Source: Patescibacteria group bacterium
GTDB lineage: Bacteria; Patescibacteriota; Patescibacteriia; SG8-24; DYFX01
Direction: 5' to 3'
DNA: 64,000 nucleotides
NCBI GenBank assembly: GCA_030583805.1
Contig: CP129476.1
Coordinates: forward strand, 1,094,657 to 1,158,656
In this document: piece after piece, positions 1 through 60,436 of the stretch
Layout: the number at the start of each line of letters is the position of its first letter
How positions within the stretch are numbered: position 1 is the first letter of the stretch
Notes under the pieces: generated by a model
What the model was told of the DNA's origin: nothing
What the model saw: only the letters and a program-made list of their open reading frames with translations
The model's database searches: none
Translations under genes and position numbers: made by a program

Positions 1-567
1 GGCGATTTCGCGGTAGGCGATCTCGACGCGCTCCTGGTAGGCACGGTCGCGCTCGTGCAGGTCTTTTTCCTGGCCCGCGGTATAGGCGCGCGCTTCTTTT
101 TTCTCGACGAGCATGTCGCGCAGCGCGGCGGGAACGGACATGATCAGCGTCAGGTCGGGGCGGGGGAGATTCATGCGGACGAACTCCAGGTCCTCAACCC
201 AAAGGCGGAAGACGGCGCGTTCTTTGGGGTCGGCAAAAAACGCGCTTTCATAGGCCATCGCGGATGCGACAAAGCGATCGGCGACCACGATTTTTCCCGC
301 ATCGAGCCAGCCTTGGATTTTTTCTTTCGTGGTTTGGCGGTCGCGGGCGTACAGCGCGGCCACGACGTAGGCGCCGACGTCATCGCGCGTGCCGAACTCC
401 CCGCGCAGATACATGTCGATAATTTTTGCGGACGGCTGGCCGTGCTGCGGGAAACTGATGGTCTCGACTTCGCGGCCGAGCGAACGCAAGCGCTCGACGA
501 GCATCTTCATCTGCGCGCTCTTGCCGGAGCCGTCTCCGCCTTCGAAATTCAGGAAGAATCCCTTCAT
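1..567 (-). CDS. tmk: Thymidylate kinase (dTMP kinase). The 5' end is complete, with ATG at 567; the 3' end runs off the window.
   Basis: Manual translation of the minus strand from 567 gives MKGFFLNFEGGDGSGKSAQMKMLVERLRS..., the classic Tmk P-loop. It is not in the ORF track because there is no in-window stop. The frame stays open to position 1. Confidence 0.8.
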   Translation of the reverse strand, partial: MKGFFLNFEGGDGSGKSAQMKMLVERLRSLGREVETISFPQHGQPSAKIIDMYLRGEFGTRDDVGAYVVAALYARDRQTTKEKIQGWLDAGKIVVADRFVASAMAYESAFFADPKERAVFRLWVEDLEFVRMNLPRPDLTLIMSVPAALRDMLVEKKEARAYTAGQEKDLHERDRAYQERVEIAYREIA

Positions 568-568
568 G

Positions 569-2194
569 TCAGGATTTAGCTTCGAGTTCGGCTTCCTTCA
601 CGCGCTGCTTGGCTTCGGAATCCGCGCGGCTCCAGAAGTAGTCGTTGTGGTCGGCGAATTTCATCGCCTCCGCGCGCCACGAAGAACGGGCAGCGACGGC
701 CTTGTGCATCAGCTGGGCGACGCGGCGGTATGTCGGGTGGCCCTGCGGCGTCGAGCGCAGTTCGATCAGGTGCATGAGCGCGCGGTCGTTGATGCCGAGC
801 GTCCAGCGGACGAGGTTGCCGTGCAAGGTCGCGTACGGAGCCTGTTCCGGGAAATCGGAAAGCAAACGCTCGTAAAGCGCGATGGCTTTCTGTTGGCAGG
901 CCTCGGCGCGATCAGCGAAGCCGGCTTTCTTCAGGTCTTCCGGCATGGAGAATCCGTGGAGCGGCGTGAACTTCTGGCGTTCCTGGCTGGCCATGCGGTG
1001 CCGCTCCAGATCCTTATAGGTGCCGTAGTCGACCAGCATGTCGAAGGTATACGGGTAGCCGCCTTCCAGCGCGCGACCCGGGCGGTCGCGGCGGCTCTTG
1101 CGGTTGCCGATGTAGGTCGCGATGATCGCGTTGCGCTTTTCGTCAGACAACGACTTCACCACCTCGCGGATTTGCGCGAGCGGGTGGGTGAGGTGCGGGT
1201 ACAGCATGAGCGCGAGCGTGAGATCGTCGGCTTCGCGTTCCGTGGCGGTGCGGTCCAAGAGCGCGACGGGCGCGGCCTCCTGCGGCGCAATGCCTGCGAA
1301 GAGCGCTTGTGCGAGCGTGCGGACGGCGTTCCTGGTCTCGATCGTGTACTCGTTCGCTTTCGCGCGTTTGACGTACCGCGGAATGATTTTTTCAAGCGCG
1401 GCGTGCGTGCGCGCGGCGACGTCCCGCGCTTCCGGAAGCGCCGAGGAGTAGCAATGCGTCATGACCGTCTGGAAGAAACGGCCGTTGCCGAAAATGCCGA
1501 CGTTGGTGAGCGTCGAAAGCGGCAAAAGCGCGCGGAGCGTGTCGCAGGCTTTCGATCGGATATCGGCTTGATAGGTGATGCGGAAGGCTTTCTGCTGCTT
1601 CTCGTCCGTGAGCTCGGCGTAGCGTTCCTTCACGCCGTCGCCGTTCACGTCGTATTCGGCGGCATCGAGCGGCTTGAGCTGCTCGTAGTACGCCTTCATG
1701 GGCGGGATCAATTCGCAGTACGTCGAGAAAATAAAATCCATCGTTTCGACGTACGCGCCGGCATGCGCGGAAGCCATGATGGCCGGATCGCGGTAATAGC
1801 GATAGCGGCCTTCGGCGTCTTTCTGATCGTAAAACACGTAGCGCGTCGACTGCTCGATGGGGGAGCCGCCGATGCGGCGATCCTCGATTTCTTTGGTGAC
1901 GAGCGTCGAGATGCTTTCAAATGAAACGTGCGCGCCCTCGAGCTCGCCGACGGAGTCGTCGCCGTAGGCGATCAAGACGCGCTCGATCAGGTCGCCGGCC
2001 TTCTTGGCGTCGATGGCGCCTTCGCGGATGAACTCCTTGAGGAGCGTTTCGCGGAAACCGCCAGGTGCTCGGCTGTAGCGCGCGTAGACCGCGCCCGTCA
2101 TGCCGTCCAGGCCCTTCACGGCAAAGATGTCGTCTTCCGTGCTGGTGACGTACGGGGCAAGGAGAGCCTTTTCTTCATCGGAAAATTTCGGCAT
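569..2194 (-). CDS. thyX: Flavin-dependent thymidylate synthase ThyX, long tandem-fused form (two ThyX-like halves, about 542 aa).
   Basis: The C-terminal half carries the ThyX signature RHRmasqerq and a conserved C-terminal helix. The N-terminal half is ThyX-like, but the RHR is degenerated to DRRIGGS...STRY. ATG at 2194 (MPKFSDEE); the in-frame extension to 2320 is unlikely to be translated. Confidence 0.6.
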   Translation of the reverse strand: MPKFSDEEKALLAPYVTSTEDDIFAVKGLDGMTGAVYARYSRAPGGFRETLLKEFIREGAIDAKKAGDLIERVLIAYGDDSVGELEGAHVSFESISTLVTKEIEDRRIGGSPIEQSTRYVFYDQKDAEGRYRYYRDPAIMASAHAGAYVETMDFIFSTYCELIPPMKAYYEQLKPLDAAEYDVNGDGVKERYAELTDEKQQKAFRITYQADIRSKACDTLRALLPLSTLTNVGIFGNGRFFQTVMTHCYSSALPEARDVAARTHAALEKIIPRYVKRAKANEYTIETRNAVRTLAQALFAGIAPQEAAPVALLDRTATEREADDLTLALMLYPHLTHPLAQIREVVKSLSDEKRNAIIATYIGNRKSRRDRPGRALEGGYPYTFDMLVDYGTYKDLERHRMASQERQKFTPLHGFSMPEDLKKAGFADRAEACQQKAIALYERLLSDFPEQAPYATLHGNLVRWTLGINDRALMHLIELRSTPQGHPTYRRVAQLMHKAVAARSSWRAEAMKFADHNDYFWSRADSEAKQRVKEAELEAKS

Positions 2195-2294
2195 GGAGTG
2201 GCGGGTAAGGATTCGTTTCTGCAGTACATCACCCCGCTTCGACCTGTTGAAGTGGACAAGCCTGTGGATAAGAAAAAAGGGGCCCCAAGCCCCT

Positions 2295-2720
2295 TTATCC
2301 GGTGGTGCCGAAGCCGCCACGCGTTTTGTCGGTCAGCGCCGGGCCCTCGTCCCAAACGGCGCGGTCGATGCGGACAAAGCCGGCCTGGCAAACGCGGTCG
2401 CCTTTTTTGATTTCGACCGGTGCGTCGGTGAAGTTCATGACGCGGAGCTTGAGTTCATCCTCGGGACCGCAGTAATCCTGATCGATGATGCCGATGCCGT
2501 GCGGCAGCTGGACGCCTTTTTTCGGCGTCGAGGAACGTGAAGCGACAAGCAACATGTAGCCTTCGGGAATGCCGAAAACGAGGCCGGTCGGAAGGTCGGC
2601 CATGCTTTTCGGTTCGAGCACGATATCCTCGACACAAACAATGTCGAAACAGACGGCGCCCGGCGTCTTGTATTCGGGCAACGCGGCGTCGGGCCGCGTG
2701 CGGGTGATGCGGACGTGCAT
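2295..2720 (-). CDS. dut: dUTP diphosphatase (dUTPase).
   Basis: Conserved dUTPase motifs: GLVFGIPEGY, SRSS, GIIDQDYCG and a C-terminal GGFGTTG. ATGA overlap with the upstream kinase gene. Confidence 0.9.
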   Translation of the reverse strand: MHVRITRTRPDAALPEYKTPGAVCFDIVCVEDIVLEPKSMADLPTGLVFGIPEGYMLLVASRSSTPKKGVQLPHGIGIIDQDYCGPEDELKLRVMNFTDAPVEIKKGDRVCQAGFVRIDRAVWDEGPALTDKTRGGFGTTG

Positions 2721-3325
2721 CAGAGTGTCGGGTGAATTTTGTTGCGATGCGGATGCGGGTGGTCGAAGTCGCCGGCTTTGATGTACTCGACGATCGATTC
2801 CATCGAGGTATACAGCTCCTCGATCTTGCCGCTGTTGTCGACGATGAATTCTGCCTTCTGTCCGATCGCCTTGATCTCGAGTTCCGTCGGCAGGAGTTCT
2901 TCTTGCTTGAATTGTTCGAGCGTCATCGTCGCTTCCGTGGCTTTTTCTCCGCGCTTGCGAGCGCGCTCCCAGCGGAGTTCCACCGGGGCGGTGACGTATA
3001 TCAGATGGAAGCCGGAAAGCTCTTTCAGATTCGCGTAGTCGGCCGGGCGGCGGATGCCGTCGACAACGACCAAAGCGTCCTCGGAGTTCTTGGCGTCTTC
3101 CGCGACGACGCGAGCGTACAAGTCTTCACCGTATGCCTTGCGGGTGAATTCGGAAAACGCCGTCAGGTTCTCGCGGGAGAGGGGAACGAGCAGGCGCTTC
3201 AGGCAATCTTTCATCGGCGTCGAAAACGCCAGCGTTTTCGCACGGTACTTTTCGAGCAGGTAAGCGGCGACGGTGCCTTTGCCGGAAGCGGCTTCACCGA
3301 CCAGGCCGATGATGATCTTGTTCAT
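2720..3325 (-). CDS. P-loop deoxynucleotide monophosphate kinase-like protein (T4 gene 1-like dNMP kinase family), 201 aa.
   Basis: Real start is MNKIIIGLVGEAASGKGT at 3325. It has the non-canonical Walker A GxxxxGKGT, as T4 gp1 has GKDT, and a D-G-x-R-R-P motif resembling the T4 dNMP kinase DTRQD region. It is paralogous to ORF 14352-15008. ATGA overlaps on both sides. Confidence 0.55.
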   Translation of the reverse strand: MNKIIIGLVGEAASGKGTVAAYLLEKYRAKTLAFSTPMKDCLKRLLVPLSRENLTAFSEFTRKAYGEDLYARVVAEDAKNSEDALVVVDGIRRPADYANLKELSGFHLIYVTAPVELRWERARKRGEKATEATMTLEQFKQEELLPTELEIKAIGQKAEFIVDNSGKIEELYTSMESIVEYIKAGDFDHPHPHRNKIHPTL

Positions 3326-3837
3326 GCTTTGGAGACGTAATTTTCGAGAGGTGCGGTGAAGGCGTGCGCCAGGCGCTCGGTCCATTCGCGCGACGGCTGG
3401 TAGGAATCGAGCGTGATGCCCGCTTCCGGCAGCGCGGCGACGACGGCAGGGGAGCGATACTCGGCGCCGGCCACGATGCGTTTCACGCCGGCACCGGCCA
3501 ACGCCTTGAAACAATGGTAGCAAGGCGAGTGGGTCGTATAGAGCGTCGAGCCGACGGTGCCGTTACCGCCCATGACGGCGGCTTGAAGCACGCAGTTCTC
3601 TTCGGCGTGGACCGTGCGGATGCAGTGGTTCTCTTCCATGAGATGGCCGGCCGGGCCGTCGCAATGCGGCATGCCGGGCGGCGCGCCATTGTAGCCCGTC
3701 GCCACGATGCGGCGGTCTTTCACCAGAACCGCGCCGACCTGGAGGCGGTTGCAGGTGCCGCGCGTCGCCACGATCTTGGCGATGCCCATGAAATAGTCGT
3801 CCCAGGACGGGCGTTGGAGAGAGGTCATAGTGTTCAA
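3322..3837 (-). CDS. dCMP deaminase (deoxycytidylate deaminase).
   Basis: Zinc-binding motifs HAEENCVLQAA and PCYHCFKAL of the CDA/dCMP deaminase fold; 171 aa. Confidence 0.85.
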   Translation of the reverse strand: MNTMTSLQRPSWDDYFMGIAKIVATRGTCNRLQVGAVLVKDRRIVATGYNGAPPGMPHCDGPAGHLMEENHCIRTVHAEENCVLQAAVMGGNGTVGSTLYTTHSPCYHCFKALAGAGVKRIVAGAEYRSPAVVAALPEAGITLDSYQPSREWTERLAHAFTAPLENYVSKA

Positions 3838-3906
3838 ACCTTACCGCCTCGGGCGAGGCGTCGCAAGTGACGAAAAACCGACCCCTTTCGGGATCGGTTC
3901 TTTCGC

Positions 3907-4668: not shown

Positions 4669-5082
4669 TTAGGCGTTCATCTTGAGCTCCGTCTCGCGCT
4701 CTTTCTGCACCCACTTGAAGTGGAGGAGGAAGAGCGGGCCGGCGACGGCGAGCATCGAGATCCATTGGACGAGATCGCGCTGGCGCTCGGCGGATTTCTG
4801 CTCGGCCAAACCGCGTTCGCATTCAGCCTTGCGCTGGCTCTTTTCTTCGTCGCTGAGCGGCTTGGGCGCTTCGCCGTCTTTCATCATTTCGACCGGCAGG
4901 GCGCGCGGCTCGTAGTAGGTCATGCCCGCTTCGTCGCAGCGCATGCCGTACGCGTTGTCGGCCTTGGTGAAGACGTACGTTTTCAAGCCGAGGTTCAGGA
5001 GCGAGATCAGCGCGATGACCGACATGATCAGGAAGATCAGGGTCGCCGCGTAGAAATAAATCTGGCGGATGGTGTTTTTCAT
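4669..5082 (-). CDS. Small membrane protein (hypothetical) inserted between rplK and rplA.
   Basis: ATG at 5082 gives MKNTIRQIYFYAATLIFLIMSVIALISLLNLGL, an N-terminal TM helix. The ORF is in the six-frame track. An intrinsic terminator lies upstream. Confidence 0.5.
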   Translation of the reverse strand: MKNTIRQIYFYAATLIFLIMSVIALISLLNLGLKTYVFTKADNAYGMRCDEAGMTYYEPRALPVEMMKDGEAPKPLSDEEKSQRKAECERGLAEQKSAERQRDLVQWISMLAVAGPLFLLHFKWVQKERETELKMNA

Positions 5083-5119
5083 ATGTGACCAGCTTGCCAA
5101 AAAAACGGCCTTTTTGCAA

Positions 5120-5968: not shown

Positions 5969-6235
5969 ATGATGGCGAAGCGATACAGAATCACGATCGC
6001 AACTTCGCAGGAACTGAGCGACGCTCTGGAGTCCACTCGCGCAGCAACCGGTCGTGACACCGTCAGCGATGTCGTGCGCGACAGCCTGGACTTCTACGAT
6101 CTTATCGTCCAGAAGATACGCGAAGGCAAGCACATCTACATCGGTGATTCCCGCGAGTCGGCCGGAGAAGTGCTCTTGCCGCGACTCGAACGCGCGCGCG
6201 GCCATCGGCTCGCTTCCGAAGACGACGGTTCCTGA
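5969..6235 (+). CDS. Small ribbon-helix-helix-like protein, 88 aa ([28 protein letters not shown]...).
   Basis: SD aggagg with spacing 5 to the ATG at 5972, plus its own terminator. The N-terminal pattern of a beta-strand then a helix is typical of CopG/RHH. It is encoded opposite to nusG and rplK. Confidence 0.45.
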
Positions 6236-6297: not shown

Positions 6298-6843
6298 TTA
6301 GATCTTCTTGACCTGGAGGAAGTCGAGCTCGATCGGCGTTTCGCGGCCGAACATGTTGACGAGCACCTTGATTTTGCCGCGCGCTTCGTCGATTTCGGCG
6401 ACCTTGCCTTCGAAGCCCTTGAACGGGCCGTCGGCGATCGAGACGGGGGAGCCCGGTTCGACGTCGATCTTGTATTCCGGCTCGTCGACGCCCATGCGCT
6501 TCTGGAGGGACTTCACTTCCTCGTCGGAGAGCGGGGTCGGGGTGGTGCCGGTGCCGATGAAGCCGGTGACGTTCGGCGTGTTGCGGACGACGTACCAGGA
6601 GTCGTCGGTCACGACCATTTCGACCAGCACGTAGCCGGGGAAGATCTTCTCTTCAACCGTCTTGCGCTTGCCGTTCTTGATCTTGATCTTCTTTTCCTTC
6701 GGGATCATGACGCCGAAGATCTTGTCCTGCATGTCGAGCGATTCGATACGCTGCTTCAGGTTGTCGGAGACGTTCTCCTCGTAGCCCGAGTAGGTATGGA
6801 TCGCGTACCAGCGACGACCCTGTTGGAGTACTTGTTTCGGCAT
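6298..6843 (-). CDS. nusG: Transcription termination/antitermination factor NusG.
   Basis: NGN and KOW domain sequence: WYAIHTYSGYEENV... and ...GKVAEIDEARGKIKVLVNMFGRETPIEL. Confidence 0.95.
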   Translation of the reverse strand: MPKQVLQQGRRWYAIHTYSGYEENVSDNLKQRIESLDMQDKIFGVMIPKEKKIKIKNGKRKTVEEKIFPGYVLVEMVVTDDSWYVVRNTPNVTGFIGTGTTPTPLSDEEVKSLQKRMGVDEPEYKIDVEPGSPVSIADGPFKGFEGKVAEIDEARGKIKVLVNMFGRETPIELDFLQVKKI

Positions 6844-60028: not shown

Positions 60029-60360
60029 GGCGCCTCCAGGTTGAGAAGTTCCTGCTCCCGTGGTATCAAGAAGCCACCTATACGTCAATCTATGGAAAAC
60101 CTCACATTCGATCTTGATGAGCTGTACGGAGCCGTAAAAGAGCGCGCGTTGTCCGAGGGCGCCTATACGCCGGAAGAGTGGAGCGACGTCATCGACATGA
60201 CGCTTCAAGATCGCGAAGAATTCGGCGAGGTGCACGACGACGAGGAGCTTTCGGCCGTGAAGGAGCAGCTCAAGGCGCGCTTCGAGGAGTTCAAAAGCGA
60301 AATCCCGGAAGCCTAGCCATTGACGTTTCCGTGAAAAAAGCGTACTCTGCGTACGCTCGG

Positions 60361-60436
60361 GTCGGTAGCTCAGTCGGTAGAGCAACAGCCTTTTAAGCTG
60401 ATGGTCCCGGGTTCGATCCCCGGCCGACCCACCAGA
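60361..60436 (+). tRNA. tRNA-Lys (anticodon UUU), with an encoded CCA.
   Basis: Cloverleaf: acceptor gggtcgg/ccgaccc; D-arm gctc...gagc; anticodon loop cuUUUaa; T-arm ccggg-ttcgatc-cccgg; discriminator A plus CCA. Confidence 0.85.

Follow-up and report, generated by a model that had tools for sequence, protein, structure and literature searches.

Two described systems bear on the locus reported here. In the flavin-dependent thymidylate synthase ThyX, active sites lie between three subunits, and dUMP is held by the arginine of an RHR motif and R199/R174 of subunit A, together with a Ser/Arg/Tyr loop of subunit C (PMC6514825). In DcdV/AvcD, a P-loop kinase (PLK) is combined with a DCD domain, and dCTP and dCMP are deaminated only if the protein has both (10.1101/2021.03.31.437871). 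Relatives of both are found in a 64-kb stretch of the chromosome of a Patescibacteria group bacterium (contig CP129476.1). We call this stretch the window, and all coordinates refer to it unless another contig is named. Five genes on its minus strand encode a dCMP deaminase, a P-loop kinase of the nucleoside monophosphate (NMP) kinase fold, a dUTPase (Dut), a 541-aa ThyX and the dTMP kinase Tmk, in that order (Table 1). We read the cluster as a housekeeping operon for dTTP synthesis, with a kinase acting on a pyrimidine deoxynucleoside monophosphate (dNMP) and a ThyX whose active site would be split between two halves of one chain, and we put the probability of this reading at roughly 0.7. The operon is typical for the phylum, and as a system the window is of a kind already known. 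Within the searchable literature, the complementary division of the ThyX active site and the place of the kinase family in the pathway appear to be undescribed.

Based on the functions of the families, dCMP would be converted to dUMP by the dCMP deaminase and dUTP to dUMP by Dut; ThyX would then turn dUMP into dTMP, which Tmk would phosphorylate. A first-pass annotation, made by reading the sequence without database searches, had proposed a pyrimidine dNTP operon of these five co-directional genes. The open reading frames (ORFs) and their Pfam and NCBIfam domains bear out the gene order, and the pathway is supported. That annotation had left the choice between modified deoxynucleotide metabolism and an unusual but ordinary dTTP pathway. 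The latter is the better reading, this being a standard arrangement in many Patescibacteria.

Canonical ThyX (TM0449, M. tuberculosis) has subunits of 220–250 aa, whereas the ThyX of the window is one chain holding two diverged Thy1 domains. Each half passes the Pfam Thy1 cut-off (24.8 bits) on its own, the N half with 62 bits (aa 58–272 to profile positions 31–190) and the C half with 53 bits (aa 381–501 to positions 58–186), which supports the earlier suggestion that two ThyX-like halves have been fused. The NCBIfam model TIGR02170 matches only the C half (residues 423–509), at 38.6 bits and thus under its equivalog cut-off of 87.9. When the whole protein or either half was compared with PDB sequences by phmmer, no match was found. 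The AlphaFold2 (AF2) model (predicted local distance difference test (pLDDT) score 83, predicted template modeling score 0.85) shares the fold of the canonical enzyme, with ThyX structures as its only significant structural matches in the PDB (Foldseek). Model confidence falls below a pLDDT of 50 at residues 65–85 and 117–119, the latter lying within the predicted substrate loop.

The window protein holds all dUMP- and FAD-binding residues of ThyX somewhere in its chain, distributed between the halves. Neither Thy1 domain contains the signature RHRx7-8S by itself; it takes the two halves together to complete it. The first-pass annotation had assigned RHR...S to the C half alone and the motif DRRIGGS to the N half. 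The second motif is present, and RHR does occur in the C half only; however, the C half has no serine at +8/+9 (RHRMASQERQKF), and the serine is found in the N half, where DRR is followed by x8-S-T-R-Y, i.e. by the Ser-x-Arg-Tyr part of the signature. Both halves were mapped by profile alignment (hhalign) to T. maritima TM0449, the sequence of which was verified against the PDB. R78-H79-R80 of TM0449 corresponds to D105-R106-R107 in the N half and R398-H399-R400 in the C half. At the loop positions E86, S88, R90 and Y91, the N half has E114, S116, R118 and Y119; in the C half the first of these is deleted and the others are R406, K408 (variable) and F409. R147 corresponds to R221 in the N half and Y454 in the C half, and R174 to C248 and R480, respectively.

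This division is nearly invariant in a census of 84 long ThyX sequences, an archaeal one included. In the N half, the loop Ser, Arg and Tyr are each kept in 83 of 84 sequences and the R147 equivalent in all 84, while the R78 and R174 positions are never Arg. In the C half, RHR is found in 84/84 and the R174 equivalent in 83/84; the S88 position is never Ser, and the R147 position is Tyr in every sequence. We read the 541-aa ThyX as an internal duplication with its predicted catalytic residues divided between the copies. Taken with the geometry of the canonical enzyme (PMC6514825), the split suggests that one full set of inter-subunit contacts has been kept and the reciprocal set discarded. The N half would supply the dUMP-binding loop (E114, S116, R118, Y119) and the R147 equivalent, whereas RHR and the equivalent of R174 would come from the C half. 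As a dimer, the fused protein would then mimic the tetramer, with only two complete composite active sites. The simplest consequence of the residue partition is that the protein should be a dimer with two working sites. A different possibility, that the N half is a purely structural pseudo-enzyme and that C halves alone form the active sites, could draw on the confinement of RHR and of the TIGR02170 match to the C half. We consider it improbable, because the C half lacks equivalents of Ser, Arg, Tyr and R147 throughout the census and the N half retains exactly these under strong conservation.

ThyX serves both as a target for antibiotics and as a model of flavin-dependent methylation. If the split is real, a natural fused enzyme of this kind would mark which residues act from which subunit, and it would let one type of site be mutated while leaving the other untouched, something that cannot be done in a homotetramer. 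Nothing relevant was found in literature searches on tandem, fused or duplicated ThyX, on ThyX in the candidate phyla radiation (CPR) or on CT632. Chlamydial ThyX, also ~530 aa long, is perhaps of the same tandem type; if it is, this architecture has already been the subject of biochemical work in which the split went unremarked. As a separate observation, the ThyX of the window and its closest relative lack ~20–25 aa of the inter-domain linker (aa ~300–330, in the region 1382–1290), a segment present in most homologues of 560 aa (alignment columns ~345–377).

Turning to the kinase, its best NCBIfam match is the archaeal model NF006226 (PRK08356), aligned over the full length (residues 2–181 to positions 4–192 of 195) with 78.5 bits, under the equivalog cut-off of 189. 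Pfam returns only the generic AAA_17/18 families, plus a sub-threshold match to DNMK (PF21448) discussed below. A family profile built from 31 sequences and searched against PDB sequences matches SSO1041/UPF0200 (3lw7) along its full length (5.6e-28, residues 5–178), and uridylate kinase and adenylate kinase AK1 likewise at full length (~1e-8). The structural comparison agrees: Foldseek places 3lw7 and 3h0k at the top of the matches to the AF2 model (pLDDT 93), with 3lw7 at rank 1 (TM-score 0.69/0.80, 27% identity), followed by UMP/CMP kinases, adenylate kinases, CoaE and phosphomevalonate kinase. Searched against viral models, the kinase matches a mix named DNMP kinase, CoaE and adenylate kinase. 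The 'AdkA-like' UPF0200/SSO1041 protein of Sulfolobus (3lw7, 3h0k) is therefore the best relative of the kinase in both sequence and structure. The two share the DG(V/I)R motif and the RxxR of the lid, and 3lw7 was solved with AMP bound. UPF0200/SSO1041 is archaeal; the window kinase has an additional His-rich C-terminal tail.

Both kinase motifs named in the first-pass annotation, GxxxxGKGT and DG(I/L)RRP, are present, as GEAASGKGT and VVDGIRRPAD. The accompanying description of the P-loop as non-canonical was not borne out, as GxxxxGKGT is the type found in adenylate and UMP/CMP kinases. Residues invariant in the family are G10, G15, K16, S35, R51, R92 (of DGIR), R118, R121 and F139, and we take the arginines among them to be those that bind phosphate in the NMP site and the lid. 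Because the P-loop, R51, DGIR92 and R118xxR121 form a set of the NMP-kinase type, we regard the kinase as catalytically competent and predict it to be a complete enzyme of the NMP-kinase fold. The His-rich tail (AGDFDHPHPHRNKIHPTL, aa 185–201, 2720–2773) is strictly conserved, as IKAGDFDHPHPHRNK[LI]HP, among relatives with identities as low as 60%; the other family members in the same alignment lack it. Its last residues have low AF2 confidence. The tail could be a metal-binding or partner-binding peptide.

The genomic context of these proteins is conserved well beyond the window. ThyX and the kinase are identical to public proteins of a 'Patescibacteria group bacterium' that are named 'FAD-dependent thymidylate synthase' and 'AAA family ATPase', respectively. 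Long ThyX has >3,000 relatives at E <= 1e-3 among 90% clusters, of which the best 120 span 532–636 aa. It is present in 205 species-representative genomes, the best 80 of which are all Patescibacteria-type metagenome-assembled genomes. For these best 80 of the 205 ThyX loci, we called ORFs and searched them with the window proteins and the hidden Markov model of the kinase. The usual order is dCMP deaminase-kinase-dut-ThyX-tmk. The kinase lies within 8 kb of the long ThyX in 43 of the 80 loci and a cytosine deaminase is present in 33, directly adjoining the kinase in 30 of those 33. Dozens of CPR genomes have the same cluster layout following secE-nusG-rplK-rplA. The kinase family itself comprises at least 3,000 clusters at 50% identity.

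Variants of the cluster are informative about what is fixed and what is exchangeable. One CPR locus (L001) reads L11-L1-dCTP deaminase (of the dUTPase fold)-kinase-dut-ThyA-DHFR-Tmk, and a Parcubacteria locus (L003) reads SecE-NusG-L11-L1-dCMP deaminase-Thy1-kinase-kinase-Tmk::dUTPase. In an archaeal variant (L005/L006), Tmk and a 552-aa Thy1 protein stand beside a kinase-dCTP deaminase pair, and genes for an LSM protein and for ribosomal protein S8e are found in the vicinity. From these variants, the kinase is constant with the pathway while the type of deaminase and the type of thymidylate synthase are swapped. The presence of ThyA and DHFR at the long-ThyX position in L001 also supports the identification of long ThyX as a thymidylate synthase.

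Given its constant companionship with a cytosine deaminase of either type, and the fusions of family members to deaminase or dUTPase, we infer that the kinase acts on a pyrimidine deoxynucleotide. Its substrate is probably dCMP/dCDP, most likely in the interconversion dCMP <-> dCDP at the branch point of the pathway. In the forward direction, the enzyme would carry salvaged dCMP towards dCTP, as a dCTP deaminase would use it; in reverse, it would supply a dCMP deaminase with dCMP made from dCDP. Such a reversible kinase would fit either type of deaminase. In CPR bacteria, DPANN archaea and Bacillus phages alike, the family is linked to the synthesis of thymidylate, and the stand-alone protein offers an easy route to the function of the kinase-like domain of DcdV/AvcD. 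A broader proposal joins both proteins: the long ThyX of Patescibacteria and DPANN archaea may be an obligate pseudo-heterodimer, and the kinase may be the free-standing housekeeping ancestor of the DcdV/AvcD PLK domain. After duplication, each ThyX copy would have lost the complementary half of the inter-subunit site, giving a dimer with two sites in place of a tetramer with four. The kinase would be a dedicated dCMP/dCDP branch-point enzyme, possibly complexed with the deaminase, in organisms living on salvaged nucleotides. We hold this conjunction only tentatively and think it rather more apt to fail than to stand.

The resemblance of the kinase to phage enzymes raises the question of whether it is a true T4 gp1-type dNMP kinase, in an operon that makes a modified pyrimidine (e.g. 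hydroxymethyl-dC or -dU) as T-even or SPO1-type phages do. The T4 gene set for dNTP synthesis resembles that of the window, and the two kinases have analogous pathway neighborhoods. T4 gp1 shares the GxxxxGKxT-type P-loop and a similar first helix with the window kinase, and we take it to carry the same D-x-R motif after strand 3. The window kinase also comes close to the DNMK threshold (26.5 versus 27.1 bits), which some homologues and a paralogue in L058 exceed, and it matches PHROG 139, 'dNMP kinase', over its full length (2.8e-19). However, the DNMK match covers only residues 5–49 (profile positions 2–46 of 232), and that of the family profile to T4 gp1 (1dek) only residues 5–43 (6.7e-6), about 40 residues around the P-loop in each case. 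A phmmer comparison of the kinase with 1dek gives E 0.95, 1dek is not among the top 50 Foldseek matches, and gp1, with 241 aa, has insertions that the window kinase lacks. There is no hydroxymethylase, glycosyltransferase or second gene resembling thymidylate synthase at the locus; the same kinase accompanies an ordinary ThyA and DHFR, and a dCTP deaminase, in L001; and the core synteny beside ribosomal genes recurs in many CPR genomes. We therefore give the modified-pyrimidine proposal very little credence, and the suggestion in the first-pass annotation of modified-nucleotide metabolism finds no support. The kinase is not a member of the T4 gp1 family, and the label 'T4-gp1-like' has little backing. 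The related label 'phage-type dNMP kinase' fares better, drawing on the PHROG match, the family members above the DNMK threshold and the order thyA-kinase-folA in Bacillus phages. In these Herelleviridae, a 'deoxynucleoside monophosphate kinase' with 26–29% identity over ~90% of the kinase length (tblastn) lies between thyA and folA, and so is likewise embedded in thymidylate genes. The phage proteins are named by annotation only. An assignment to dephospho-CoA kinase, CoaE, scarcely merits consideration. Many homologues carry this label from the JGI annotation pipeline, and the CoaE structure 2if2 is matched at 2.7e-6 with the single sequence and 1.4e-10 with the family profile. Nevertheless, TIGR00152 reaches 23.3 bits against a cut-off of 65.55 and covers the P-loop alone (residues 5–30), the Pfam CoaE match is faint, and the context and fusions of the kinase involve exclusively enzymes of the dTTP pathway.

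The relationship to DcdV/AvcD allows another interpretation, in which deaminase and kinase are the two parts of a split anti-phage dCTP deaminase that depletes dCTP on infection and is not a housekeeping system. The two proteins do match the two domains of the PADLOC model, the deaminase at 8e-27 and the kinase at 6.4e-12 (PDLC02373; residues 2–182 to profile positions 153–333), and the naturally fused protein P0240 matches it at 3e-53. Both also match NF041025, the kinase at 2.2e-7, yet with 73 bits for the deaminase and 30 bits for the kinase against a cut-off of 400. In the window, however, each is a small protein with a gene of its own, the deaminase gene preceding that of the kinase within a housekeeping operon; the pair sits between rplA and dut-thyX-tmk, syntenic across CPR and without the context of a defense island, and the organism needs a source of dUMP. 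Upstream of the pair, we found only the rplA terminator, in scans that included no specific search for an inhibitory small RNA. A split defense system is accordingly very doubtful. On the grounds of family scores, gene context and CPR synteny, we rejected the CoaE, split-defense and modified-nucleotide readings. Another reading, in which the kinase is a partner of the deaminase and not a forward dNMP kinase, has more in its favor and is still unlikely in our view. Here the kinase would work in a reverse or NTPase mode, making dCMP from dCDP or dCTP, or would sense dCTP/dTTP allosterically. The adjacency of the two genes in 30 of 33 loci, their 4-nt overlap in the window and the deaminase fusions favor this, as does the requirement of DcdV for both domains in deamination (10.1101/2021.03.31.437871). 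On the other hand, the kinase occurs next to dut or tmk in loci with no deaminase at all (e.g. L045, L054, L056, L065 and L071) and between phage thyA and folA, it pairs equally with dCTP deaminases of the dUTPase fold, which need no dCMP, and its full set of NMP-kinase arginines is conserved.

Several points weigh against our reading of the cluster as a housekeeping dTTP operon with a dNMP kinase and a split-site ThyX. For the kinase, a literature search found no biochemical data for close family members, and none on the function of UPF0200/SSO1041. Its substrate could be another (d)NMP or a nucleoside, or it could have none and be regulatory. Tmk is already present, and dCMP deaminase itself needs no kinase. 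Within the 64-kb window, which was the part of the 1.17-Mb genome scanned, no Walker-A kinase of the cmk, gmk or adk type was found beyond this one. For ThyX, neither BLASTP nor profile-profile hhalign found significant similarity between the halves, and as they do not match each other directly, the duplication is deduced only via the Thy1 profile that both of them match. Alignment to TM0449 by hhalign also gave weak scores (N half, E 0.047; C half, E 0.003), and the residue mapping is based on motif register and conservation. Finally, the terminator-like hairpin between dut and thyX is identified by a consensus match only.

That hairpin may bear on how the cluster is transcribed. The first-pass annotation had described ATGA overlaps between consecutive genes, which holds at one junction of the four: the stop codon of the deaminase gene and the start ATG of the kinase overlap by 4 nt (ATGA). 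Kinase and dut overlap by 1 nt (TGATG), thyX and tmk are separated by a 1-nt spacer (TGAcATG), and dut and thyX by a 100-nt gap. Within this gap, AAAGGGGCTTGGGGCCCCTTT is followed by a T run (read from 2296 to 2276), with a 9-bp stem containing 5 GC pairs and then TTTCTTATCC. Taken as a whole, the spacer does not fold exceptionally (z = -0.97), and the hairpin is at most a candidate terminator or attenuator. There are probably two transcription blocks, dcd-kinase-dut and thyX-tmk. At the 5' boundary, the 73-nt intergenic region between rplA and the deaminase gene is predicted to fold strongly (-38.7 kcal/mol, z = -5.6).

Table 1. Features of the dTTP-synthesis cluster in the 64-kb window
Feature	Position	Strand	Evidence
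dCMP deaminase, 168 aa from ATG	3322-3828	-	PF00383, 89 bits (cut-off 25)
P-loop kinase, 201 aa, NMP-kinase fold	2720-3325	-	UPF0200 / DcdV-PLK / phage 'dNMP kinase' group
dUTPase (dut), 141 aa	2295-2720	-	PF00692, 68.6 bits (cut-off 22); TIGR00576, 91 bits
ThyX, 541 aa	569-2194	-	PF02511, 111 bits, two stretches
ThyX N-terminal half, aa 1-290	1325-2194	-	Pfam Thy1
ThyX C-terminal half, aa 291-541 and stop codon	569-1324	-	Pfam Thy1
dTMP kinase Tmk, first 189 of 232 aa (cut by window edge)	1-567	-	PF02223, 80.2 bits (cut-off 27); NF005923, 126 bits
Terminator-like hairpin and T run, directly 3' of dut stop	2276-2296	-	consensus match
Intrinsic terminator of rplA, 5' boundary of operon	3870-3895	-	hairpin AACCGAUCCCGAAAGGGGUCGGUUUUU

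The full length of Tmk was read from an identical public Logan contig (L089). For the deaminase, we prefer the start at ATG 3828 over TTG 3837, since the N-terminal sequence SWDDYFMGIAK argues for it. The zinc-binding motifs HAE and PCxxC are present in its translation as VHAEE and SPCYHC, and TIGR02571 (ComEB) is matched at 128 bits, under the equivalog cut-off.

Upstream of the cluster lie, in order, rplA (PF00687), a gene for a DUF5671 protein, rplK, nusG and secE. The DUF5671 gene (4669–5100, minus strand) encodes a 143-aa membrane protein and is inserted between rplK and rplA; at the equivalent position there is a protein on L089 and there are unannotated ORFs in L001. An antisense ORF of 88 aa (5969–6235, plus strand), with no Pfam match, lies between rplK and nusG. 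Rfam and tRNA scans of the window returned only a tRNA-Lys (60359–60434).

Among the related loci, a DHFR-like ORF directly follows long ThyX, ahead of tmk, in L061 (9535–10122) and L074 (5529–6116). This is unexpected, as ThyX yields tetrahydrofolate and not dihydrofolate. Many of the loci, including L008–L010 and L013–L015, have clear Patescibacteria-type gene content and are titled 'uncultured Gammaproteobacteria bacterium', and one is titled 'Methanosarcinales archaeon'; in these third-party annotation assemblies, the taxonomy given in the titles seems to be a placeholder or mistaken.

Several pathway genes also occur fused to one another. Tmk::dUTPase (353 aa) is encoded at 6304–7365 in L003; kinase::dUTPase (376 aa, P0344) and kinase::kinase (395 aa, P0313) were found as matches in the representative library; and P0240, from Micrarchaeia, is a kinase::dCMP deaminase of 341 aa. 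In addition, two kinase paralogues are present in several CPR dTTP clusters (L058 3444–4958, L061 4397–5564 and L003 5001–6158, as well as L059, L063, L045 and L054). One type, with the motifs GLPGAGKTE...ESLYSWE, directly follows dCMP deaminase, has 22–23% identity with the kinase of the window and gives a match to the PLK domain of DcdV type (~3e-11). The second type, in which the P-loop contains GKD, precedes tmk and exceeds the Pfam DNMK threshold at 28 bits.

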